From: Pseudodesulfovibrio piezophilus C1TLV30
GTDB lineage: Bacteria; Desulfobacterota; Desulfovibrionia; Desulfovibrionales; Desulfovibrionaceae
Direction of reading: 5' to 3'
Length of the DNA: 32,000 nt
Assembly (NCBI RefSeq): GCF_000341895.1
Contig: NC_020409.1
Span: 2,970,001 to 3,002,000 of the forward strand
Position numbers and translations under genes: made by a program. The notes beneath the pieces are model-generated. The model did no database searches, was not told the origin of the DNA, and saw only the letters and a program-made list of their open reading frames with translations. Below, one piece after another: positions 1-31,589 of this stretch; positions within the stretch are counted from its first letter, which is position 1; each line of letters starts with the position of its first letter.

Positions 1-755
1 CGACCGAAAAGGAAACGTTTCATTATGGTGCCGTGGAAAGTTCCTTGCAACTTGAGAATGTTTCCTTCAGCTACCCTGGAACAGACAAGGCCGTTCTTCA
101 TGACATCAATTTGAATCTCAAGCCCGGTGACAAGGTCGGTATTGTCGGCCGAACCGGGGCAGGTAAATCCACCCTCGGCAAACTGATAGTCGGTCTTTAC
201 CAGCCGCTCAGTGGTGCGGTGAAGGTTGGTAATATCGATCTGCGTCAAATGGATGTGGCAGATTTACGGCGTAAGGTGGGATATGTCTCGCAGGATTCCC
301 TGCTTTTTTACGGGACACTCAAGGATAATCTTGCTTTCGGGTTGCCGGAAGCAGATGACCAGACGATCAAGGAGGCGGCTGATATCGCCGGGGTCAATGA
401 TTTCGTCAAGGATCATCCTGCTGGATTCGGCATGATGGTGGGAGAGCGGGGGACTTCGCTGTCAGGTGGGCAACGCCAAGCGGTTTCCGTGGCTCGGGCC
501 ATTTTACCCGATCCTGAAATTCTGATTATGGATGAACCTTCCAGCAATATGGACAATCAGTCGGAATATCGGCTCAAGTCAAAGCTTGAGCCATTTGTCA
601 GGGAGAAGACTCTCATCGTGATTACACATCGTCATTCCATGTTGGACTTGGTGAACAGGCTGGTTATCATGGATAAAGGGCGCATCGTTGTTGATGGGCC
701 GAAGAAGGCTGTTCTCGACGGGTTGCGATCCGGCAAGATCAAGGTCAACATGTGA
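1..755 (+). CDS. Type I secretion ABC transporter ATPase/permease, C-terminal nucleotide-binding domain (5' partial; gene starts upstream of window)
   Basis: Frame 3 is open from the window edge to the TGA at 753-755. Walker A GRTGAGKST, ABC signature LSGGQRQ, Walker B ILIMDEPS, H-loop ITHRH. Followed 8 nt later by a HlyD-family adaptor gene. Confidence 0.9.
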   Translation, partial: TEKETFHYGAVESSLQLENVSFSYPGTDKAVLHDINLNLKPGDKVGIVGRTGAGKSTLGKLIVGLYQPLSGAVKVGNIDLRQMDVADLRRKVGYVSQDSLLFYGTLKDNLAFGLPEADDQTIKEAADIAGVNDFVKDHPAGFGMMVGERGTSLSGGQRQAVSVARAILPDPEILIMDEPSSNMDNQSEYRLKSKLEPFVREKTLIVITHRHSMLDLVNRLVIMDKGRIVVDGPKKAVLDGLRSGKIKVNM

Positions 756-762
756 GGCCGTG

Positions 763-2091
763 ATGAGCAATAAAAAATTTGATAGAGAAACACTGCTGTT
801 CATGTCCGAAGTGGATCAGGCCATGCATGGTTCCGGGCGAAAGCTTGCGTATCTGATGTCTGTTTCCATTGTGTTGATGTTCGTGGGTTTTCTGGTCTGG
901 GCCAAGTTTGCCGTTCTGGATGAAGTGACGCGGGGGTTTGGCAAGATCATTCCATCCCAACGAATTCAGGAAATACAGAATCTCGAAGGCGGCATCCTGA
1001 GCGAAATTTATGTTGATGAAGGCCAGGTGGTCAAAAAAGGCGATGTCTTGTGCCGGTTGCATAATGAGCAGGCTGCCAGTTTTTACCGAGATGCCTTTGC
1101 AAAAGCGCTTGAGCATCGGGCGGCTATTGCTCGGTTGATAGCCATTGTTGAAGGGATTGAACCAGTCTTTGATGATGAATTGGTGGAAAAAGCGCCGCAG
1201 TTGGTGCAGGACCAGCGCCGTATTTATAAAGCCCAATTGGATCAGTTTGATATCGAAGTCAGTTTGCTCCAAGATCAATATGAGCAGAAGAACCAGGAAA
1301 TCAATGAGATGAAAGCGCGCCGCAACCAGCTCGATTCAAGCCTGAAAGTGGCAAAAAAACAGCGGGCTATTGCCAAACCATTGGTCGAGAAACATATTCA
1401 TTCAGAACTGGACTATCTGGCGCTTGAGCAAAAAGTACTGGAGTTGAACGGAGATGTTCAAGCCTTGAATTTAGGTATTCCCCGCGTGGAATCTGCGGCT
1501 CGTGAGGCAAAGGGACGTGTCGAGCAGCGCAAAGCCGAGTTTCGCAGTGCTGCACTGGAAGAAATCAACCAGCGTCGACAGGAACTGAGTTCTATTCGGG
1601 AATCCTTGAGTGCCGGAAGCGACAGAGTGACACGGACCGATGTTCGATCTCCGGTGAGAGGGATTGTCAAAACGATTCACATCAATACCTTGGGTGGTGT
1701 TGTTCAGCCTGGTGAGTCGATCATGGAAGTCGTTCCTTTGGATGACTCCCTGCTCGTCGAAGCCCGTATCAAACCTGCTGATATCGCTTTTCTTCATCCC
1801 AGACAGGCTGCCCAAGTTAAAATTACTGCATATGACTCAGCTATCTACGGTGGACTGGATGGGACTGTCGAGCATATCAGTGCGGATACCATTGCCGATG
1901 AACGAGGCGAAAATTATTATCTTGTGAAGGTCAGAACCTCGAAGAGTGTCATGGAATACCGTGGAGAAAGCCTTCCTATCATTCCGGGCATGACCGCTCA
2001 GGTTGATGTCCTGACCGGCAAGAAGTCTGTTTTGGATTACTTGCTCAAGCCTATTCTCAAAGCCAAACAAAACGCGCTCCGGGAGCGCTGA
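763..2091 (+). CDS. HlyD-family type I secretion periplasmic adaptor (membrane fusion protein)
   Basis: ATG at 763 (MSNKKFDRE) just after the ABC stop. The track start at 688 overlaps the ABC gene and is unlikely. One N-terminal TM (LAYLMSVSIVLMFVGFLVWAKF), a long coiled-coil middle, and a C-terminal GMTAQVDVLTGKKSVLDYLLKPI typical of HlyD/LapC-type MFPs. Confidence 0.9.
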   Translation: MSNKKFDRETLLFMSEVDQAMHGSGRKLAYLMSVSIVLMFVGFLVWAKFAVLDEVTRGFGKIIPSQRIQEIQNLEGGILSEIYVDEGQVVKKGDVLCRLHNEQAASFYRDAFAKALEHRAAIARLIAIVEGIEPVFDDELVEKAPQLVQDQRRIYKAQLDQFDIEVSLLQDQYEQKNQEINEMKARRNQLDSSLKVAKKQRAIAKPLVEKHIHSELDYLALEQKVLELNGDVQALNLGIPRVESAAREAKGRVEQRKAEFRSAALEEINQRRQELSSIRESLSAGSDRVTRTDVRSPVRGIVKTIHINTLGGVVQPGESIMEVVPLDDSLLVEARIKPADIAFLHPRQAAQVKITAYDSAIYGGLDGTVEHISADTIADERGENYYLVKVRTSKSVMEYRGESLPIIPGMTAQVDVLTGKKSVLDYLLKPILKAKQNALRER

Positions 2092-2100
2092 TCGTCGTTG

Positions 2101-3174
2101 ATGACGCGAGCCAGCCTCATACGTCGGATGGCGGCGGTCGCTTTATTGGTGGCCGCCTTCGCTATTTATCCGATGGTTGGTGGGACGACGCAGACGCAAG
2201 GTGCCGGGAACACGGAAAAGGAGGCGGCTGCGGATGATACAGTTGCTGAAAACCCCTCGGTTGAGAGCGGTTCAGAAGAGACTCAGGTTCGGGAAGTAAT
2301 CTCTTCGGGCAGGCAAGAGACACCCCCGAAGAAGGCCGTTTCCACTCAGGCCGTCACAAAAGAGGTGGGTATTCACGCTGACCGGGGTGCCTCAACTCCG
2401 GTCGTTCCAGCATCCAGCCAGGCTGAAGCAGTGTTTTCCTCAACCCCGGTCACTTCCAAAAAAACGTCCCCCGTACTCAAGTCATCTCAACCGACCTCTC
2501 CCGTAGCCAGGAAGGAAAAGGTCCCGGTTGTCCGTTCGGTGCCTGCTCCTCGAAAAGCAGGAAAAGAGACCCCCCAATCAAAGAAAATTCTGCTTTTCGA
2601 CACCATTGAATTTAAGGGAAAAATAAGAAAACTTCCCAAGTGGTCGAGAGTGCTTGCCAAAATGAAGGCTTGGAAAGGATACTTCAAGGATGCGCAGAGC
2701 GCGAAGCTTCCTTCCAGGTCAGGTTGGGTGAAGCTCAGGCGTGATGTCGCGGGGCTTGATCGTATGGGAAGACTCAAAGCGGTCAATAAATTTTTCAATA
2801 AATGGCCGTATCGATTGGATGCGGCGAATTACGGGGCCAGTGATTACTGGGCGACCCCCATGGAGTTCCTCAGAAAATCAGGAGATTGCGAGGATTATTC
2901 CATTGCCAAGTTTTATGCGTTGCAGGAGCTTGGTTTTACTGGTGATTCAATGCGAATAGTGGCTCTCAAGGACCGGATCAGAAATATCGGACACGCAGTT
3001 CTTGTGGTCTATCTTGGCAACGATGCCTATGTGCTGGATAATCAGACCAATATGGTCCTGTCTCATGTCAAATATAAGCATTATGTTCCCCAGTATTCGG
3101 TGAATGAGCACTTTCGATGGATGCATGTTCCCAGGTCGAAGAAGAGTGTGCGTCGAAGCGTGAAGAAAAAATAG
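2101..3174 (+). CDS. LapG-like periplasmic cysteine protease (bacterial transglutaminase-like cysteine proteinase, BTLCP / peptidase C93)
   Basis: Signal peptide MTRASLIRRMAAVALLVAAFAIYP, then a ~135 aa Ser/Thr/Pro/Lys-rich linker. C-terminal BTLCP core: DYWATPMEFLRKSGDCEDYSIAKFYAL (Cys codon 2887-2889), GHAVLVV (His), YVLDN (Asp). Starts 9 nt after the HlyD stop. Confidence 0.85.
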   Translation: MTRASLIRRMAAVALLVAAFAIYPMVGGTTQTQGAGNTEKEAAADDTVAENPSVESGSEETQVREVISSGRQETPPKKAVSTQAVTKEVGIHADRGASTPVVPASSQAEAVFSSTPVTSKKTSPVLKSSQPTSPVARKEKVPVVRSVPAPRKAGKETPQSKKILLFDTIEFKGKIRKLPKWSRVLAKMKAWKGYFKDAQSAKLPSRSGWVKLRRDVAGLDRMGRLKAVNKFFNKWPYRLDAANYGASDYWATPMEFLRKSGDCEDYSIAKFYALQELGFTGDSMRIVALKDRIRNIGHAVLVVYLGNDAYVLDNQTNMVLSHVKYKHYVPQYSVNEHFRWMHVPRSKKSVRRSVKKK

Positions 3175-3210
3175 AGGGAGAGGCATGCTGCCTGTCCTGT
3201 CAACAACCAG

Positions 3211-5304
3211 ATGGAGTCAACTATGGCACAGCAGACCAACTCAGAATTACCGATAAGCATCGGCGGAGCAAGGCAGGGGGTTAAGATCACCGTTGTCCTC
3301 GCTTTCGTGCTGGTGATTTCCGCAGGTATCCTGTTCCTGGCGAGCCGGGCAGTGGGCATCAAGAAATCCGAAGGACTGGAGAATCTGGAGAAACGGTATA
3401 AACTTTTGGCTCATGGCCGTGGTGAAATGTTTACGGCCTGGCTGGAGAACCTGTCTCATCAGGGTGACAGGTTGATAAAGTCTGATCTTTTCAGGCTCTA
3501 CGCCGCTGAAGTGGACAGTTTTGATGGTGATCTGGCCGGTATTTTCGGTGCTGTCGCCATTGAAGACGATGATTCTCAGGGAGAGGGAGCCGAACTCGCG
3601 GCACAGTTGCCCATGATGCAGAATATGCTTAGGGAATTTTCTACTTACTCCGGCTTTGTCAATGCCCGGATTCTCAATCGCCATGGGGATGCCTATATAG
3701 CCACGGATGGCTATCTGCCACCAATGTTGCCGGAGCAGTTGGAGCAGGCGACAGAATCCATGAAGAGCGGCAAACCTCGATTCTCTCCCCTTCGCAAGAC
3801 TTTGCAGGGGCTTGAGATGGATGTCTATGTGCCTCTTTATTCTCCTGATGGGGCGGAAAATGAGGAAGCACCAATCGGTGCGCTGATGATGACCCGACAA
3901 GTTTCTGGTAAAATAACGGAGCTGCTTGCGAATTCAGTGCTTTCTTCTCAGGGCGAACGGACTCGTTTGATCCAGAAAGGCGTTGGAGGCTATCGGCAGG
4001 TGACACCGTGGACCACGGATGGCTTTACACCTGTGCATAGTGATATCGCATTGGATGAAAACGGGGATATCCCATTTGGTGAACGGGGAAGCCTCTCCGA
4101 GCCTGAACAGAAAGTTTTTTCACTTGGGCACATGATCCATGGTCCTGATTGGTGGGTTGTTCAGGAAGGTGATTATAGTGAGGCCATGGGACCTCTTGTC
4201 GCTTTCAGAAACAGTGTGACTGTGGTTGCCGGATTGGGAATTCTTACGGCCTTGCTGATAGCGGGCTTGGCTTGGTGGGTTCTTGCCGGAGTTCAAAGCC
4301 AGAGAATAGCAGAAGAATTCAAAGCTCTTGCTGCTCAGATCGACGATCAGAAACGGTTTATCGATTCCATCAATGCCAATATCGATGAATTTATTACTCT
4401 CAAGGACCTTGAGGGGAAATACACATATGTCAATGATGCCTTCGCCGAAGCGGTTGGGCGCAAGAAAGATGAACTGATAGGTATGGATTCCGCTGCTGTT
4501 TTCGGTTTTGACACGGCAAAGCGAGTGGGGGCGGATGATGGAATTGTCTGTCAGACGGGACGCAAGGAAATCATCAATGAGTCATTTTTCCTCCATTCTC
4601 AGCGCTATGAGTTCCAGATTTCCAAGTCTCCCTACATGGACAAGGACAACATGTGTCAGGGGATTGTCGAGGTCTACAGGGATATGACGGAATTTGTGGC
4701 AGTGCAGGAAAAGAACAAGCGTCTGATCAAACGGGCCATGGAGGCCCTCGGTTCGACGATTGAGGCCGCAGACCCGTATTTGGGCGGGCACACCAAGCTG
4801 ATGGCCGGGCTTTCAGTGGAAGTCTCCAAAACCATGCACTTGTCGGAAATGGAGATGGCTGAAATAGAAACAGCCGCCAACCTTTCGCAGATCGGAAAAA
4901 TGTTTGTCGCCAATGAGATCCTGACCAAGCCGGGCAAATTGACTGATGAAGAAATGGCAGCCATGGAAGAGCATGTGGAACATGCGTATCGGATACTCAA
5001 GGATATAGACATCGATGAAGGGGTGTTGAAGGCCATTTATCAGATGAATGAGCGAAATGATGGATCTGGATATCCCAAACAGCTTGAAGCGGAGGATATT
5101 ATTCTGTCTGCTCGCATTCTTTCGGTGCTCAATGTCTTTTGCGCGATGATCCGTCCGCGTTCCTATCGAGGAGCCAAGGCACCCCGCGAAGCTTTGGGAA
5201 TTTTGGCAGCAGATGCGACCAAATTCGATGCTGCTGTTGTCGAAGCATTGGGGAATGTCCTCAAGACTCCTTCGGGTGAGCGGTTACTCGAAGGTCGGGC
5301 ATAG
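3211..5304 (+). CDS. Inner-membrane signalling receptor: TM, ~290 aa periplasmic (Cache-like) domain, TM, coiled coil, PAS, degenerate HD-GYP domain. Functional LapD analogue is proposed.
   Basis: TM1 about aa 24-47 and TM2 about aa 337-362. PAS-like IDEFITLKDLEGKYTYVNDAFAEAVGRKKDELIGM. HD-GYP fold with GGHTKLMAG, KPGKLTDEEM and DGSGYP, but the HD dyad reads SQ (LSQIGK, 4882-4899), HHE reads QMNE, and DxFDA reads NVFCAM. An alternative start at 3223 is possible. Confidence 0.8.
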   Translation: MESTMAQQTNSELPISIGGARQGVKITVVLAFVLVISAGILFLASRAVGIKKSEGLENLEKRYKLLAHGRGEMFTAWLENLSHQGDRLIKSDLFRLYAAEVDSFDGDLAGIFGAVAIEDDDSQGEGAELAAQLPMMQNMLREFSTYSGFVNARILNRHGDAYIATDGYLPPMLPEQLEQATESMKSGKPRFSPLRKTLQGLEMDVYVPLYSPDGAENEEAPIGALMMTRQVSGKITELLANSVLSSQGERTRLIQKGVGGYRQVTPWTTDGFTPVHSDIALDENGDIPFGERGSLSEPEQKVFSLGHMIHGPDWWVVQEGDYSEAMGPLVAFRNSVTVVAGLGILTALLIAGLAWWVLAGVQSQRIAEEFKALAAQIDDQKRFIDSINANIDEFITLKDLEGKYTYVNDAFAEAVGRKKDELIGMDSAAVFGFDTAKRVGADDGIVCQTGRKEIINESFFLHSQRYEFQISKSPYMDKDNMCQGIVEVYRDMTEFVAVQEKNKRLIKRAMEALGSTIEAADPYLGGHTKLMAGLSVEVSKTMHLSEMEMAEIETAANLSQIGKMFVANEILTKPGKLTDEEMAAMEEHVEHAYRILKDIDIDEGVLKAIYQMNERNDGSGYPKQLEAEDIILSARILSVLNVFCAMIRPRSYRGAKAPREALGILAADATKFDAAVVEALGNVLKTPSGERLLEGRA

Positions 5305-11544: not shown

Positions 11545-12342
11545 TTAACGCTTGATATCCAGTTCCCGTTTTTTCGTATAAATGAAGCGGACCATTTCAT
11601 ACTCGAAGGGAGAGCCTGTCGAGTGATATCTGAACGGTGTGTTGGCTCGAAGATTGATGCCCCGCACAAGCTGTTCAGTCAAGCTTCGGGCAGTGGTGTC
11701 ATCAACGCCAATGGCTCTGTAAATGTACTGCATCTCCAGATATTGGAGGAGCGTGTCACCACCATAGCCTGCGGCATCTCTGAGATTGGATGGCCCGATG
11801 ACCGGCATGACGAAGTAGGGACCGTTGCCCACTCCCCAGAAGCCCAGAGTCTGGCCTATGTCTTCCTGCTGGCGGGGTAGGGATTTTGCCTTGGATGCCT
11901 GGTCCCATATACCTGCGACGCCAAAGGTTGTGTTGATCAGGATTCGGGAAATCGTGATGAAAGATTTTTCCAATTTCCCTTGGAGGAGGCAGTTGACCAG
12001 AACAGGCACCTCGTGGAGGTTGTTGATGACATTGCTCACGCCAGTCCGGACCGGGGAGGGAAGAACCAGTCGGTAGGCTTTCGTCGCAGGAATCAGAACA
12101 TATTCATCCACATTGGCATTGAATTCATATAAATTCCGATTCATCGGCTCCCATGGATCGTAAACATCCAGGAACCTGAGCGATCGGGAATCTTCAGTGG
12201 GCCAGCGGTGAACCTGTGTCTTGAAACCTGTGGGTTGCAGATTCGACATGGGGTCAATGGTCGTCATGGTTTTGGGACCACATGCCCCGAGCAGGAGCAT
12301 CACCGCAAATATGAAGGCAAGATGGGGCTTGAGGTGTTTCAT
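11545..12342 (-). CDS. mlaA: MlaA/VacJ family outer-membrane lipoprotein
   Basis: Lipobox LLLGACG. DPWEPMNRNLYEFN, NLHEVPVLVNCLLQGK, INTTFGVAGIWD and GPYFVMPVIGPSNLRD are typical MlaA/VacJ blocks. Confidence 0.88.
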   Translation of the reverse strand: MKHLKPHLAFIFAVMLLLGACGPKTMTTIDPMSNLQPTGFKTQVHRWPTEDSRSLRFLDVYDPWEPMNRNLYEFNANVDEYVLIPATKAYRLVLPSPVRTGVSNVINNLHEVPVLVNCLLQGKLEKSFITISRILINTTFGVAGIWDQASKAKSLPRQQEDIGQTLGFWGVGNGPYFVMPVIGPSNLRDAAGYGGDTLLQYLEMQYIYRAIGVDDTTARSLTEQLVRGINLRANTPFRYHSTGSPFEYEMVRFIYTKKRELDIKR

Positions 12343-13607
12343 GGGCGCACCATCCGAACCATGGTTTCGACAAAGGCAGGATGTCTCATATTGCCGCAGT
12401 GTCCACCGGTGGGGAATAGAAAGGCCCGCGAGCCGAAAGTATTTTCGATGAACCGTAAATCATCCCTGTCAAGAATGACATCATCCCGATTGCCGATAAG
12501 GACTATCTTGTCGGTCGTCTTGAGGTATTCGCTGATATCCTTGAGACTGCACTGTCGCAACACTGTCCTCCTGTCCAGTCCCGGCTTCATGTATTGGATG
12601 AACGGGAGCAGGTATTCATCCAGATACTCTTCAAATCGAACGTCAAATGCCTGCTGGGCATACGGCAGTAATGATGTGCCCGTTTTGAGCGGATAGTCCT
12701 GAGGGGGAACGAGGTATTCCGCCCGTAGACAGACATCTGAGGCAAAGATCATGGAAGCGGATGAGGTGCGGAAAGCGCCTCCGATAAGTGTCTTGAGGTC
12801 TTTGTCCCGGAAATTTACACGGGTCACCATGCGGTAGAGAAAGTCATCATCGAGGTCGGTAACATCAGCGGTTCTGTAGTATTCTGAAAAGCGGTCAATG
12901 ACTTTTTCGATCTGCTCCCGGACCGTTGTATCGCCGAGGTTTTCGTCTGTCAGCCATGCATCAAGCCGTGTGACCGAACTGTAGAGGGACACGGGCGGAT
13001 TGATCATGAGCACTTTCTGAAAGCCAAAATCCTTCAGCGTGGAATCCGCATGGGCTATGAAGGCGGCATGCAGAGCGCCGAGACTGTACCCGGCCATGGA
13101 GTATCCGGTTATGTCACATTCCTTTTCCACATCTGTCTTGATCCACTGCATGACCTTGTATAAATCTGCTACGTCGTATGGGACATAGCCGGGAACCCCG
13201 TGCTCGGATGCACTGACAATGAAATTCATATGGGTTGGAGACGACAAAGCCACCACATGAAATCCGGCCTCATGGAAGACTTGAGTCAGGAATGCCATTT
13301 TCAGAGAATTGTGCTCGGCTCCGGTTCCGGCAATGAGAAAAAGTAGTGGGGCAGCCGTGTCTTGCAGGGCCGTTGTATAATACATGTCGCGGCTGTACGA
13401 GAAGACATTCGGAACCTGACGGCCTTCTATTCGGAGGGACCGGATTTCCGGTTTGACCGGATTGCTCACTCTATAGCGACTCTCTGGCGGTGTGCCATAG
13501 ACAGTGGCTTTGTACGGATTGTCAAATGGGTAATCATAGTCCGCCGCTCCAGCCGAGAGTATCGGAAGGAAAAGGACGAAAAAGGTAAAAGCAAGGGTGA
13601 ATCGCAT
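12339..13607 (-). CDS. Secreted alpha/beta-fold serine hydrolase (lipase/esterase-like), function unknown
   Basis: Start chosen at MRFTLAFTFFVLFLPILSAGA/ADY (signal peptide). Oxyanion-region LLFLIAGTG, nucleophile elbow GYSLG, acid DDVILD, His in TGGHCG. Its stop overlaps the mlaA ATG (ATGA, 12339-12342). Confidence 0.7.
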   Translation of the reverse strand: MRFTLAFTFFVLFLPILSAGAADYDYPFDNPYKATVYGTPPESRYRVSNPVKPEIRSLRIEGRQVPNVFSYSRDMYYTTALQDTAAPLLFLIAGTGAEHNSLKMAFLTQVFHEAGFHVVALSSPTHMNFIVSASEHGVPGYVPYDVADLYKVMQWIKTDVEKECDITGYSMAGYSLGALHAAFIAHADSTLKDFGFQKVLMINPPVSLYSSVTRLDAWLTDENLGDTTVREQIEKVIDRFSEYYRTADVTDLDDDFLYRMVTRVNFRDKDLKTLIGGAFRTSSASMIFASDVCLRAEYLVPPQDYPLKTGTSLLPYAQQAFDVRFEEYLDEYLLPFIQYMKPGLDRRTVLRQCSLKDISEYLKTTDKIVLIGNRDDVILDRDDLRFIENTFGSRAFLFPTGGHCGNMRHPAFVETMVRMVRP

Positions 13608-13916
13608 AAGCCTGCAAGGGAAAAAGATTGGATGGTCGCAAAAATATACGGAATAGACCCTATCGTGAACAGAAAAGGGATGCAATGGGTATCGGGGCGC
13701 TGGGGAAAGCCCGGTGTGTTGTGCCGGGTGTCGGAAGTGAGGAATCTTTCCCATGCCGCTCCTGTTTTGGAGAGAGCCCCAATGTCCACGACTTCCTCTT
13801 TCCCCATAGTATATGTATTAGACAACCTCTCTCAAATGCCTTACAAGCTTCCCCACACGCCGTGATTCGGCGTCTTTCCCCATGCCCGGAGAAAAATTTC
13901 ACTCACAATGAGAATT

Positions 13917-15845: not shown

Positions 15846-16466
15846 ATGACCAACGATTCCATGAAATCATTCCGCGACACTCTCGAAGCTATCGTCGTGG
15901 CGCTTCTTCTGGCTTTTGTCATCCGTGCCTTTGTGGTCCAGGCATTCAAGATTCCATCTGGTTCCATGCTGGAAACCCTTCAAATCGGTGATCACCTGCT
16001 GGTGAGCAAGTTTGCATATGATGTCCGTTTGCCGTCCGACATATGGCTTGATACCACCGACGGCAAAGTCCTTTACAAAACCAGTGATCCCGAACGCGGT
16101 GACATCATCGTTTTCAAATTCCCGCAGGATGAGTCCAAGGATTACATCAAGCGTATCATAGGCTTGCCCGGTGAAACCGTGGAAGTTCGCAACAAAGTCG
16201 TTTATATCAATGGCCAGCCGCTGGACGAACCGTATGTCCTGCACACTGATGCCAAGAATTTGCCTGTGCGTGACAACTTTGGCCCGGTAACTGTGCCGGA
16301 AGGCCGCTACTTCATGATGGGTGACAATCGAGAAGGCTCATTCGATTCCCGCTGGTGGGGAACCGTGAAGCGAGAGAAGATTGTCGGTAAAGCACTTATT
16401 ATCTACTGGTCTTGGGGATCTCTCACCGATATCCGTCTTGATCGTATCGGAACCATGTTCCGGTAA
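15846..16466 (+). CDS. lepB: Signal peptidase I
   Basis: Catalytic Ser box IPSGSMLETL, GDHLLVSKF, Lys box YIKRIIGLPGE, GDNREGSFDSRWWG. Confidence 0.93.
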   Translation: MTNDSMKSFRDTLEAIVVALLLAFVIRAFVVQAFKIPSGSMLETLQIGDHLLVSKFAYDVRLPSDIWLDTTDGKVLYKTSDPERGDIIVFKFPQDESKDYIKRIIGLPGETVEVRNKVVYINGQPLDEPYVLHTDAKNLPVRDNFGPVTVPEGRYFMMGDNREGSFDSRWWGTVKREKIVGKALIIYWSWGSLTDIRLDRIGTMFR

Positions 16467-26010: not shown

Positions 26011-26988
26011 CTAATGTGTCATTCCCTGAGGCCAGACATAATAGAATCCGGCTTGTGGCGGAGCAAGAAAACCAACATCAAGACCGAGCATGTCGAGTTT
26101 TCCGATTTCGGTCGCGGTCATGGTGTTGTATGGGTTATCGTTGGGATAGGTGTCTCGGCGGTATGTAACAATCGTGGCATCAACTGGCAGGTGTGCGAGT
26201 TCTCGGGTTTTACCAAAGGCATCTTGAATATATCCGATCTGGTCGATGAGGCCGATCTCCCTAGCCTGATCTGCCGTGAAGACTCTTGCAGACTTGATCA
26301 GAGCCATATGAGCCGGTGTCGGGTGGCGATGCTGGACAACCAGGCTGTGGAATCGATCGGCATATTTCTCGATAATGGTTTGAAACAGAGCGGTTTCCTC
26401 AGGAGTGGAGGGGCGGAAAGGCGACCCCATGTCCTTGTCCTCTCCCGACTTGGAGACTTCCACACCGATGCCGATTTTATCAAACAGCTCGTGCAGTTTG
26501 GGGCGCATGAATATCACGCCGACAGAGCCGGTAATGGTGGTTGGGTGGGCTATGATCCAGTCCGCAGGGAGGGCTGCATAATACCCTCCGCTTGCAGCGA
26601 CATCGAACAGCGCGGCAACAACAGTTTTTTTTGTCCGTTTCTTGAATTCAGTGATCTCGTGATAAAGGATATCCGATGCAGTTGTTGTGCCTCCGGGCGA
26701 ATTGATGGCGATCACGATACCTCGAACAGATGAGTCGGATGCGGCCAGTTCCAGGGAACTGACCAATTCCTGCACCTGACTGGGCGAAGGGCGGAATGTG
26801 CCGGTTTTCGGCTGTGAAGTTAGGACCCCTGTCAGATGAATCAGAGCTAGTTTGTCTTCCCCATGGCCCTCCAGAACAACTTCCCGGAGCGGATCAGTGG
26901 GTTGCGCAGAAAAGAGTTTGATCTTGGGAGCGCAACCCGGAAAGAGAATAAGAACTGTCACCAAGAGAATGGAGAGATGATGCCGCAT
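26011..26988 (-). CDS. sppA: Signal peptide peptidase SppA, 36K type (lipoprotein)
   Basis: Lipobox-like LFPGCAP. INSPGGTTTAS, nucleophile region DVAASGGYYAA, Lys region SGEDKDMGSPFRP. Confidence 0.88.
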   Translation of the reverse strand: MRHHLSILLVTVLILFPGCAPKIKLFSAQPTDPLREVVLEGHGEDKLALIHLTGVLTSQPKTGTFRPSPSQVQELVSSLELAASDSSVRGIVIAINSPGGTTTASDILYHEITEFKKRTKKTVVAALFDVAASGGYYAALPADWIIAHPTTITGSVGVIFMRPKLHELFDKIGIGVEVSKSGEDKDMGSPFRPSTPEETALFQTIIEKYADRFHSLVVQHRHPTPAHMALIKSARVFTADQAREIGLIDQIGYIQDAFGKTRELAHLPVDATIVTYRRDTYPNDNPYNTMTATEIGKLDMLGLDVGFLAPPQAGFYYVWPQGMTH

Positions 26989-29614: not shown

Positions 29615-29705
29615 GTATTCTCTCCGCTCATGGTTCTAGCGGGTTTTGGCATCGCTGAAAACCTGAAATACGTGACTGTTTGGTCGAATCTTCGATGAAA
29701 GTGTG

Positions 29706-29734
29706 TTGACATACATGATTCTTCATGTAGCGTT
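29706..29734 (+). promoter_or_regulatory. Possible sigma-70 promoter with an embedded 6 bp inverted repeat, upstream of the lipoprotein gene
   Basis: TTGACA (29706-29711), 16 nt spacer, TAGCGT. ACATGA (29713-29718) / TCATGT (29723-29728) lies within the spacer. Confidence 0.3.
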
Positions 29735-29765
29735 GAATATATCCATAAAAGCATTGGGGGATGCC

Positions 29766-31268
29766 ATGAAAGCAGTCAGACGAATCGTGTGTGTCGTTGT
29801 TCTCGCGTGCTGTCTTGGTGCGTGTACCAAAGATAAATATGACAGGAGCATGGAGGATGTCGCTCGGAATTGGTGCATGACGATCCGGGCCTCTCAGGTC
29901 ATCCCGATCTATCCTCTGGAGGAGAGTATCCGGCCCGGTGACGTCTTTCTGGTCGGAGCGCCTCATGCAAAGGAAGTGACGCTGTATAGAGAGAAAGGAT
30001 TTTTGCCCATGGATACCCATCTGCATCGAATCAGCGGATTGGAGAAGGATTATGTGGATTTCTACGGGGAAGGATATTTGAATGAGTACCCGGCTCCTCC
30101 TAAAAAAGAGGTTTCTGTGGCGAATGCTTCTTCGGGACAGTCCTCAAACTCTTCGTTACCCTTGAGAGACTGCGCGAACTCTTCTGACGAATTTGGTCGG
30201 CTTATGTGTCTCATCGAAAAACAGAACGGCGCAAAGGGCGGTCGTTCAATGCAATGGCCTCTCGCCGTTTTTCCTTCCTATACGGTCAAGGTGGGGACTG
30301 ATGCTTCGCTGGGAGCGGGGCTTTCCCTCAAGGGGATACCCCTTGGGTTGTCCTTCCTGCATGCATCTCAAGCTTTGGCCATGGTGACTATCAAGGACAG
30401 CTATAGTGTGGGGCTTCCCGTGGATGTGCTCTACCCGGAAGTGACAGCTTGGGCAGCGCGGCCGGAGGCAAGCGAATTGCTTGATGAATATGTCGATGGC
30501 CATGAAAACGTCCTCTACGTTCGGCTTATCACAAAGGTCTTTTTGGCGCAGCAGTTCGACATAGCTCTTCTCTCAAACTCCCAGACTGGCGGCAGGGTAA
30601 ACGTCAATACAGAATCAGCCGAGGGAAACGCGACTGCCGACAATGCAACCATGACCGAGCGCTTGACAGAGCTTGTCATGCAAAACCTCGTGACCGCAGC
30701 GGCCGACCAGATGCCCAAGGGCGAGGTGGCTTTCATGTCCGGTTCATCCAGTGCCGTGAGCCTGCGAGAGACGTTGGATCGTCCTGTTGTTCTCGGGTAT
30801 CACGCTGTTGATATACCGGTTTTTGACGGCGGGAGGCTTGGAGCACCGGTTGCCACACAAAGCTTTCTCCTTGACCGGGCAACGCCCTTGGCCTCGGCCA
30901 GGGAAATCAGGGAAAACCGGTTGAGCATCGTGGATCTGAATCGCGAAGTAAATTCTCTATCCAGGACGTGCGCTGTCTTTTTCATGCATATTATGGCGGA
31001 TAGAAGTCCTGATCGTTATGGCTCAATCGTATCTTTACTCGATCGATTGGTCGCAGAAGCTCAAGAAGGATCAGTGACTGAGAGTTTCTTTGACGCGACA
31101 AAAAAAGATTTCGATGACGTTACCGATGACTGGATTAACGAGGCTGCCAATGCATCAACGGAAGAAAGCGACCGGATTTTACGATCGATCAAGGCGGAAT
31201 ACGTGCGAGCGCTCGGGATGGCCCGGCGTCGATGCGAGAGCATGAAGAGCAGGAGGAATTATGAGTGA
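29766..31268 (+). CDS. Uncharacterised ~500 aa lipoprotein: N-terminal ~400 aa beta-rich domain with a gasdermin-N-like sequence pattern, C-terminal ~110 aa helical acidic/basic region
   Basis: MKAVRRIVCVVVLACCLGAC lipoprotein signal (Cys20 codon 29823-29825). No recognisable catalytic motifs. See the finding for the block pattern. The track start at 29703 adds 21 aa without a signal-peptide rationale. Confidence 0.6.
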   Translation: MKAVRRIVCVVVLACCLGACTKDKYDRSMEDVARNWCMTIRASQVIPIYPLEESIRPGDVFLVGAPHAKEVTLYREKGFLPMDTHLHRISGLEKDYVDFYGEGYLNEYPAPPKKEVSVANASSGQSSNSSLPLRDCANSSDEFGRLMCLIEKQNGAKGGRSMQWPLAVFPSYTVKVGTDASLGAGLSLKGIPLGLSFLHASQALAMVTIKDSYSVGLPVDVLYPEVTAWAARPEASELLDEYVDGHENVLYVRLITKVFLAQQFDIALLSNSQTGGRVNVNTESAEGNATADNATMTERLTELVMQNLVTAAADQMPKGEVAFMSGSSSAVSLRETLDRPVVLGYHAVDIPVFDGGRLGAPVATQSFLLDRATPLASAREIRENRLSIVDLNREVNSLSRTCAVFFMHIMADRSPDRYGSIVSLLDRLVAEAQEGSVTESFFDATKKDFDDVTDDWINEAANASTEESDRILRSIKAEYVRALGMARRRCESMKSRRNYE

Positions 31269-31473
31269 CGGAATACAGTATGAATACAGAGTGTTTCAAC
31301 AGGATAAACCGTTTGTTTTCGTCTCGGGGCAATTGGAAACATGGAAGGACAACGGTTACCTCGCGGTGGAGCTGCTGGACAGAGAAGGAGTCTGGTATGC
31401 ACTGCGTTGGCTGAAGACTCCTCGAGGCATAGACGGCAAACCTTCCGATGATCCGGAAGGGCTGGAATTGTAG
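31261..31473 (+). CDS. Small 70 aa protein, translationally coupled to the lipoprotein gene
   Basis: The ATG at 31261 overlaps the upstream stop (ATGAGTGA) and is preceded by AGGAGGA inside the upstream gene. No TM or signal peptide. Confidence 0.5.
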   Translation: MSDGIQYEYRVFQQDKPFVFVSGQLETWKDNGYLAVELLDREGVWYALRWLKTPRGIDGKPSDDPEGLEL

Positions 31474-31589
31474 GTTTTCGAAAGGGGCTTCGGATACGGT
31501 CCGGGTGTTCTTGAGAGTGCCGGAGTTTTGCACATCATTGCCAGCCCGGAAAGTTTGCGTTAGGGCCGCTCTCACAAGGAGTTGCTCTC

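Follow-up and report, generated by a model that had tools for sequence, protein, structure and literature searches.

We have analysed a window of 32,000 nucleotides (nt) from Pseudodesulfovibrio piezophilus C1TLV30 (contig NC_020409.1, positions 2,970,001 to 3,002,000 of the forward strand) in which a stop-free reading frame at 29766-31268 (+ strand; all coordinates are those of the window) translates to a predicted lipoprotein of 500 amino acids (aa). Structure models give good support to the prediction that residues 21-364 of this protein adopt the fold of the gasdermin pore-forming domain. The remainder is a polymorphic helical tail, whose type co-varies almost one-to-one with the type of a small protein encoded directly downstream, a finding new to the present analysis. 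Judged by the sequences compared, the module is composed of a constant domain of predicted gasdermin fold and a fast, jointly evolving tail-partner cassette. We read it, tentatively and at somewhat less than an even chance, as a latent membrane-perforating lipoprotein of the envelope in which the polymorphic tail and the small partner form a cognate pair. The parts of the module are the following:

29826..30857, + strand: conserved domain of predicted gasdermin fold, residues 21-364 (domain-only model and Foldseek)
30858..31268, + strand: C-terminal helical tail, residues 365-500 and the stop codon (model and tail typing)
31251..31256, + strand: AGGAGG, ribosome-binding site of the partner, within the 3' end of the lipoprotein gene (sequence inspection)
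31261..31473, + strand: small partner gene, 70 aa, no signal peptide, with an ATG that overlaps the last codons and stop of the lipoprotein gene by 8 nt

A gasdermin-type fold had been proposed in an initial annotation, made by eye from the sequence, and the structural comparison bears this out: in Foldseek searches with AlphaFold2 models, gasdermins, most of them bacterial, were the best and essentially the only confident PDB matches. One model covered the full-length protein and was built from a 29-sequence alignment (mean predicted local distance difference test, pLDDT, 77.9; predicted template modelling score, pTM, 0.61). The other was limited to residues 21-376 and built from 150 sequences (pLDDT 77.8, pTM 0.75); the two rest on overlapping alignments and are not independent. 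The three top matches of the full-length model were the bacterial gasdermins 7n50, 7n51 and 7n52, with expectation values (E) from 2e-5 to 8e-5 and, for 7n50, E 2e-5 and a template modelling (TM) score of 0.52 on the target. With the domain-only model, hits 1 to 7 were all gasdermins, 7n50 being first (E 1.2e-5, TM 0.53), followed by 7n51, three chains of 7n52, the Trichoplax gasdermin 8jyv (E 5e-3) and the bacterial oligomer 8sl0. A bacterial pore, the Trichoplax pore and the GSDMD pore 6vfe (E 0.8) appeared lower in the same list. The gasdermins listed come from three bacterial genera and an animal and include a pore state, and no other fold reached a probability above 0.1 in this search. 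Over both models, 7n50, 7n51 and 7n52 gave E 1e-5 to 2e-4, probability 1.00 and TM up to 0.53. Nothing was obtained when the domain-only model was compared with a viral structure library as a specificity control (best E 0.099). The core strands have pLDDT of 90 or more. No full-length gasdermin was matched by the full-length model, and its helical part matched only GyrA, with low probability. The bacterial gasdermin structures used as matches were released in 2021, after the AlphaFold2 training cut-off.

At the sequence level the link to gasdermins is only suggestive. The four peptide blocks on which the initial annotation relied are present (residues 43-63, 177-222, 235-280 and 330-356). The block-by-block likeness to human GSDMD that it saw in them did not hold, there being no detectable sequence similarity and a resemblance above chance only at the level of the predicted fold. 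No PDB gasdermin was significant by sequence for the window protein or for the profiles. A profile of the 29-homologue alignment (A1), compared with 177,635 PDB sequences, ranked 7n50 first at E 0.35, in an alignment that pairs FPSY.. and ..LRVVSRVYL.. with equivalent strands. Weak local alignments with a Runella-type gasdermin are colinear (window residues 225-283 with Runella 132-188, and 324-358 with 201-235). Simple shuffles, which are a lenient control, reached the score of the 7n50 fragment against a deeper profile (A3) in 0 of 2000 trials and that of the Runella protein in 1 of 2000. As a calibration, the solved bacterial gasdermins 7n50 and 7n52 match one another only at E 0.3, and Pfam fails also on the core fragment of 7n50. 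Protein searches seeded with fragments of 7n50 and 7n52 returned no matches, nor did a tblastn search of plasmids with the 7n50 fragment. A metagenome scan with a fragment of the Runella gasdermin found just three near-identical loci of the Runella type. In two loci kept as controls (L088, 30-3552, and L089, 24-3558), a gasdermin of 268-270 aa starting with MEC lies directly 3' of a gene of ~900 aa in which leucine-rich repeats, a GTPase-like region and, at the C-terminus, a protease-like region can be made out by eye. Such is the canonical layout of bacterial gasdermins, which is not seen in the window.

The family was found in 156 of ~185,000 species genomes (pattern-based scan, one genome per species). 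Locus and taxonomy detail comes from the best 80 of these carriers; the analysis of neighbours covered 78 non-redundant loci. In 77 of the 78, the lipoprotein gene is followed, at -38 to +88 nt, by a small open reading frame (ORF) on the same strand, which in most cases is preceded by a ribosome-binding site and which by neighbour clustering is the sole conserved neighbour. For ~63 loci, a homologue of this small ORF occupies the corresponding position in some other locus. The initial annotation, which had suggested a survey of the neighbours for proteases, toxins or phage defence, missed this ORF. The window partner (31261-31473), which is called as a gene in public records, has no Pfam or PDB match. 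The partners form several sequence types, and that of the window aligns to the type-A template through the partner of the syntenic homologue L003. Profile comparison links C1 with C2 (92%) and A with C2 (41%), the other links not being significant.

The tail has a similar organization. Over the family the C-terminal extension is helical and polymorphic, with 22-196 residues (median 123), and in the model of the window protein the last ~125 residues are predicted to be helical (helices at 378-499, pLDDT 79-93). The 66 tails compared fall into at least 8 multi-member types plus 16 singletons that are mutually unrelated, each type being scattered over several phyla; the window tail (type T5) is common only to the window and L003. 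Tail and partner types go together: partner A accompanies tail T0 in 14 of 17 loci and B accompanies T1 in all 16, while C goes with T2 and T3, and D with T4. Identity of the N-domain is 0.45-0.48 within types and 0.42-0.45 between them. The comparison of the window with the syntenic L003 gave 79% identity for YitT, 65% for CobS, 61% for SAM_HAT and 56% for the N-domain of the lipoprotein, and only 26% for the tail and 27% for the small partner. A Pfam scan of 79 tails gave no known or toxin domain, only scattered marginal matches. Residues conserved within T0 and within T1 are chiefly W, L and F, no catalytic-type set being seen among them, and no additional tail or partner cassettes were found within 8 kb. 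The helical C-terminal region described in the initial annotation is present as predicted helices. It is not a conserved autoinhibitory domain; it is polymorphic and co-varies with the small downstream gene. Such co-variation suggests a logic of regulation, or of toxin and immunity, that is other than the one seen in the initial annotation or comes in addition to it.

Downstream of the partner there is one further feature, a possible end of the two-gene unit for which the evidence is weak:

31489..31515, + strand: terminator-like hairpin with a T-rich tail, 3' of the partner (consensus scan only; no more stable than shuffled sequence)

Some partner loci show peculiarities of their own. In Candidatus Brocadia (L034, 2018-2737) the partner ORF matches both the type-A partner profile (E 6e-6) and the T0 tail profile (E 4e-13) and might be a natural partner-tail fusion; its longest reading opens with a hydrophobic stretch and its true start is uncertain. 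Partners in eight loci (L010, L013, L040, L056, L060, L068, L083 and L084) carry N-terminal basic, low-complexity extensions rich in Lys, Ala and Pro ahead of the conserved domain. In Phycisphaera (L001/L002, 7508-8998) the partner is followed by a Pfam-less protein of 496 aa with an N-terminus (..VLIHGYS..) that by eye looks like that of an alpha/beta-hydrolase or lipase; elsewhere in the family this neighbour is not conserved.

The lipoprotein signal noted in the initial annotation is clear, and with it the protein would be exported and lipidated, unlike the bacterial gasdermins described. The N-terminus MKAVRRIVCVVVLACCLGAC shows, at the sequence level, the hallmarks of a bacterial lipoprotein, namely a basic n-region, a hydrophobic h-region and a lipobox (L-G-A-C) with an invariant Cys:

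29756..29761, + strand: ribosome-binding site GGGGGA, 4 nt 5' of the ATG at 29766 (sequence inspection)
29766..29822, + strand: signal peptide, residues 1-19, with n-region MKAVRR and h-region IVCVVVLACCL, then L-G-A of the lipobox (sequence and family-wide pattern)
29823..29825, + strand: lipobox Cys20, predicted lipidated mature N-terminus, followed at +2 by Thr and not Asp (alignment)

In public annotations the gene has at least four start choices (window 29703-29766), corresponding to 521, 517, 500 and 463 aa. The signal peptide sits at the N-terminus only with the 500-aa start, and 29766 is the best choice because homologues begin 10-25 residues before the conserved Cys. This Cys has no exception in the A1 alignment of 29 homologues. 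By inspection, a signal peptide and Cys are present in ~146 of 149 family representatives (133 of 149 with a strict lipobox pattern). At +2 the family mostly has A, G, T or S, and Asp in 4 of 133. In Escherichia coli the +2 rule sorts lipoproteins by membrane, although the rule is unverified in these phyla; by analogy it suggests the outer membrane as the likelier site of the mature protein. The tether between the Cys and W36 has a median of 16 residues, short enough to keep the folded domain near the membrane. Co-export of the small partner as a twin-arginine translocation (Tat) hitch-hiker was considered and rejected, with a twin-arginine pair seen by inspection in just ~9 of 29 n-regions.

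In the models the conserved domain is predicted to consist of an N-terminal helix, a hairpin like beta1-beta2 (VIPIYPL...GDVFLV) and a long twisted beta-sheet core. Twelve residues are invariant in 150 sequences (W36, Q44, Y49, P50, G58, D59, G78, F169, P170, Y172, R253 and G344) and many more are conserved in at least 90% of them, and the segments D59-G78, Y172-T214 and R253-G281 are of fixed length. The other parts of the domain can be delimited as follows:

30066..30257, + strand: variable low-confidence insert, residues 101-164 (pLDDT <50 at 108-130)
30279..30407, + strand: Gly/Pro-rich amphipathic segment, residues 172-214 (length and alternation statistics)
30576..30725, + strand: second excursion between core strands, residues 271-320, with one amphipathic helix (pLDDT <50 at 274-317)
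30828..30857, + strand: boundary motif GGRLGAPVAT, residues 355-364 (conservation table)

The span Y100-P165 has 66 residues in the window protein, compared with 21-122 in the family as a whole (median 35). Segment 172-214, in turn, in which Gly, Ala and Pro abound, is 43 residues long in each of the 150 sequences. Hydrophobic residues alternate along it on both sides of a P-I-Q-G-V-P turn (consensus residues F174, V176, L182, L184, I186 and I188 on one side, V191, V193, L195, L197, V207 and I209 on the other), and it is modelled, with lower confidence, as short helices between two core strands. In inactive gasdermins, helical parts lying on the sheet refold to membrane hairpins (10.1101/2021.06.07.447441). 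By its position, segment 172-214 is like such a refolding element and would be a candidate for the first membrane-inserting hairpin. The second excursion (271-320) is, also by position in the model, a candidate for a second, length-variable refolding element, but the corresponding segment G281-P340 has from 45 to 246 residues over the family, a range that is hard to reconcile with a strictly gasdermin-like second hairpin in every member. The boundary motif has the family consensus G-x-L-G-x-P-I-x-T, and similarity between subfamilies stops there.

Described at first as an orphan, the protein belongs to a sizeable family. A word-indexed search found 29 homologues, every one of them annotated as hypothetical, and an exhaustive profile search found 1512 protein clusters at E <= 1e-3, including 557 at E <= 1e-30. 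Nevertheless, the lipoprotein has no match in Pfam, NCBIfam, PADLOC or the PDB sequences, and 29 members scanned singly gave no Pfam match at E up to 10 and no PADLOC match. The family is confined to bacterial groups with two membranes. The best 80 carriers, all of them with two membranes, are metagenome-assembled genomes and include Planctomycetota, Verrucomicrobiota, Nitrospirota, Burkholderiales, Acidobacteriota, Methylomirabilota, anammox bacteria and a spirochaete; the range of the family also takes in Desulfobacterota. No myxobacterial genome is among these 80. A phage or plasmid origin was rejected, given that searches of plasmids and of deposited phages gave no homologue and that only 1 of 2.9 million viral contigs encodes a member. 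That single member (L091, 4284-5357 of a putatively viral IMG/VR contig) has 27% identity. In the literature (full text, limited collection), no lipoprotein or periplasmic gasdermin-like family was found described.

The initial annotation saw no protease gene in the window. This is imprecise: three genes of peptidase families are present (C93 at 2098-3174, S26 at 15846-16466 and S49 at 26011-26988). None is adjacent to the lipoprotein gene, and no protease or defence neighbour is conserved beside its homologues in the 78 loci. The S49 gene (SppA-like signal-peptide peptidase, - strand) was considered as an activator and rejected, being on the opposite strand, 2.8 kb upstream and missing from the syntenic loci L003 and L004; it is probably a housekeeping gene. 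Response regulators and ATP-binding cassette (ABC) ATPases were also discarded as partner neighbours, since they are generic families at scattered positions. Elsewhere in the window, positions 33-5304 (+ strand) encode in a row an ABC ATPase (33-755), an HlyD-type fusion protein (688-2091), a BTLCP/Peptidase_C93 protein (2098-3174), i.e. a transglutaminase-like cysteine protease, and a PAS plus HD-GYP protein (3211-5304). The row resembles a type I secretion cluster to which an adhesin-release protease and a cyclic di-GMP phosphodiesterase are joined. At 11545-13754 (- strand), a Pfam-less ORF of 471 aa (12339-13754) shares its end with an MlaA lipoprotein gene (11545-12342).

Under the reading that we tentatively favour, the mature lipoprotein would be located on the periplasm-facing leaflet, more likely that of the outer membrane, and in the resting state the excursions at ~178-200 and ~271-320 would be packed on the beta-sheet. 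Once a restraint is released, the excursions would refold to amphipathic hairpins, leading to oligomerisation and perforation of the membrane. The helical tail and the small protein would bind as cognates and lock or neutralise the activity in the style of toxin-antitoxin or toxin-immunity pairs, and this could act either on the precursor, ahead of its export, or within a sister cell that receives the protein, in the cytoplasm. A dedicated protease neighbour would play no part. Both the membrane activity on the periplasm-facing leaflet and the binding or neutralisation between tail and partner are steps that we infer.

Several points weigh against this reading. As to the fold, the fit to known gasdermins is modest (TM-scores 0.34-0.53, root mean square deviation, rmsd, ~10 A), and the membrane activity is putative. 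As to sequence homology, which is not significant, 7n50 was not listed when the deeper profile A3 was compared with the PDB, and hhalign comparisons, of a profile with a single sequence, gave a non-significant 21% with the 7n50 fragment and 0.9% with a full-length Runella-type gasdermin of metagenomic origin. In addition, the core is conserved beyond the usual need of a pore-former, which may indicate a specific ligand or a non-lytic role, and inserts of up to ~200 residues in the second excursion are awkward for a segment that has to cross a bilayer. The reading does not account for where an exported lipoprotein would meet a partner that has no signal peptide. Finally, the neighbours in the window are housekeeping genes and not a defence or conflict island. 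A broader proposal, which we consider doubtful and less probable than the reading itself, is that the family represents a second, much larger prokaryotic branch of gasdermins, exported and lipid-anchored, that would perforate or cross envelope membranes from the periplasmic side and be run by a polymorphic tail and a small cognate instead of a protease.

The strongest rival, in our opinion an unlikely one, takes the protein as a toxin of the SitA kind, in which the N-domain would escort or translocate, the variable tail would be a cytoplasmic toxin and the small signal-less protein its cognate immunity protein. In SitA of Myxococcus, which is also a lipoprotein, a conserved N-terminal domain of ~375 aa is combined with a C-terminus that is polymorphic, and the gene stands in an operon with a cognate, non-transferred immunity gene (PMC8546572). 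The present architecture equals that of SitA/SitI point by point (lipobox, constant N-domain of ~345 aa, polymorphic tail, co-varying partner), the fastest divergence is found in tail and partner, and an immunity protein acting in the cytoplasm would solve the compartment problem just mentioned. Most SitA toxin domains are, however, common to other toxin systems (PMC8546572), whereas 0 of the 79 tails examined has a known toxin domain. The conserved residues of the tails are mostly hydrophobic, with no catalytic-looking set, and some tails are just ~60-75 residues long. There are no orphan tail or partner cassettes within 8 kb and no homologues on plasmids or in deposited phages, with the single occurrence among the 2.9 million viral contigs. 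Moreover, the copy in the window lies amid housekeeping genes, in synteny with a homologue of 46% identity.

Equally improbable, to our mind, is a non-lytic envelope lipoprotein, whose fold would bind a conserved lipid or polymer of the envelope, or tether a membrane, and for which the small gene would code for a regulator or assembly factor. This would agree well with the high conservation of the core across phyla (the 12 invariant residues, the indel-free segments and 42-48% identity, compared with 18% among bacterial gasdermins) and with a conserved set of Arg, Asp and Tyr that, from the alignment, could form a ligand site. The housekeeping context, the stable position and the lack of any defence-system match in PADLOC go in the same direction. 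On the other hand, a family so rare and patchy (the 156 genomes cited above) is ill-suited to a core function in the envelope. Conflict systems are where a polymorphic tail that co-varies with a partner is typically seen, and the best structural matches are pore-formers only.

That the gasdermin likeness is a modelling artefact or a convergent arrangement of beta-sheet plus helices, unrelated in fold and function, is very unlikely: the low-confidence regions of the models (mean pLDDT ~78), the modest TM and rmsd values, the lack of significant sequence similarity and the overlap of the two alignments would favour it, but the core strands are predicted with high confidence, varied gasdermins match and no other fold does so in the domain-only search, the viral-library control was empty, the independent weak sequence matches fall at topologically equivalent, colinear positions and the matched bacterial structures postdate the training of the method.

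Gasdermins are cytosolic, protease-activated executioners in animals, fungi and ~50 bacterial defence loci. If the predicted fold is true, a widespread family would have this fold in the bacterial envelope, outside the cytoplasm, which would imply another mode of control. The combination of a constant N-domain with a polymorphic tail and a cognate partner poses a clear question, whether and in which compartment the partner neutralises the lipoprotein. The analysis would also give a first functional idea for a sizeable unannotated family.

Among known systems, type II toxin-antitoxin and colicin-immunity pairs follow the logic of an effector with a cognate small protein. The module resembles them in its overlapping genes, its conserved effector and its fast-evolving cognate small protein. 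It differs in that the effector is here exported and lipidated, as predicted, and in that the partner has no recognisable DNA-binding or immunity domain. With SitA/SitI (PMC5562445, PMC8546572) the family has in common a lipoprotein with a constant N-domain and a polymorphic C-terminus and a small signal-less gene directly downstream. The C-termini there are recognisable nucleases, whereas the tails of the window family have no known domain; neither are there myxobacteria among the best 80 loci nor any link to mobile elements.

The gasdermins of animals (GSDMD, GSDMA3 and the Trichoplax gasdermin; PF04598) also combine an N-domain of pore type with an all-helical C-terminal region. However, the window family has no Pfam match and no match to PDB sequences, its helical tail is unconserved and did not match a gasdermin C-terminal domain, and the activation of animal gasdermins by caspase cleavage has no visible counterpart in it.

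Bacterial gasdermins (bGSDMs) are cytosolic proteins of ~240-270 aa, self-palmitoylated on Cys3 or Cys4 (Johnson et al., bioRxiv 10.1101/2021.06.07.447441). They are located in defence islands, with a protease gene adjacent in 43 of 50, are shut by a C-terminal peptide of ~20-30 residues that cleavage removes, truncation being toxic, and are 18% identical to each other (10.1101/2021.06.07.447441). The window protein is at best "like" a gasdermin and is not to be filed as a bGSDM on present evidence. It has 500 aa with a signal peptide and the lipobox Cys20, and its lipid would come from the lipoprotein pathway after export, so that the predicted lipidation is analogous to the self-palmitoylation of bGSDMs and not the same modification. 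Its family lacks a conserved protease neighbour and a defence island, and has instead a polymorphic tail (75-190 residues), an obligate small partner and a strongly conserved core. What both have in common, according to the predictions made here, is the core fold, a lipid-bearing Cys at the mature N-terminus, a C-terminal extension past the last beta-hairpin and helical excursions on the sheet that would be able to refold.

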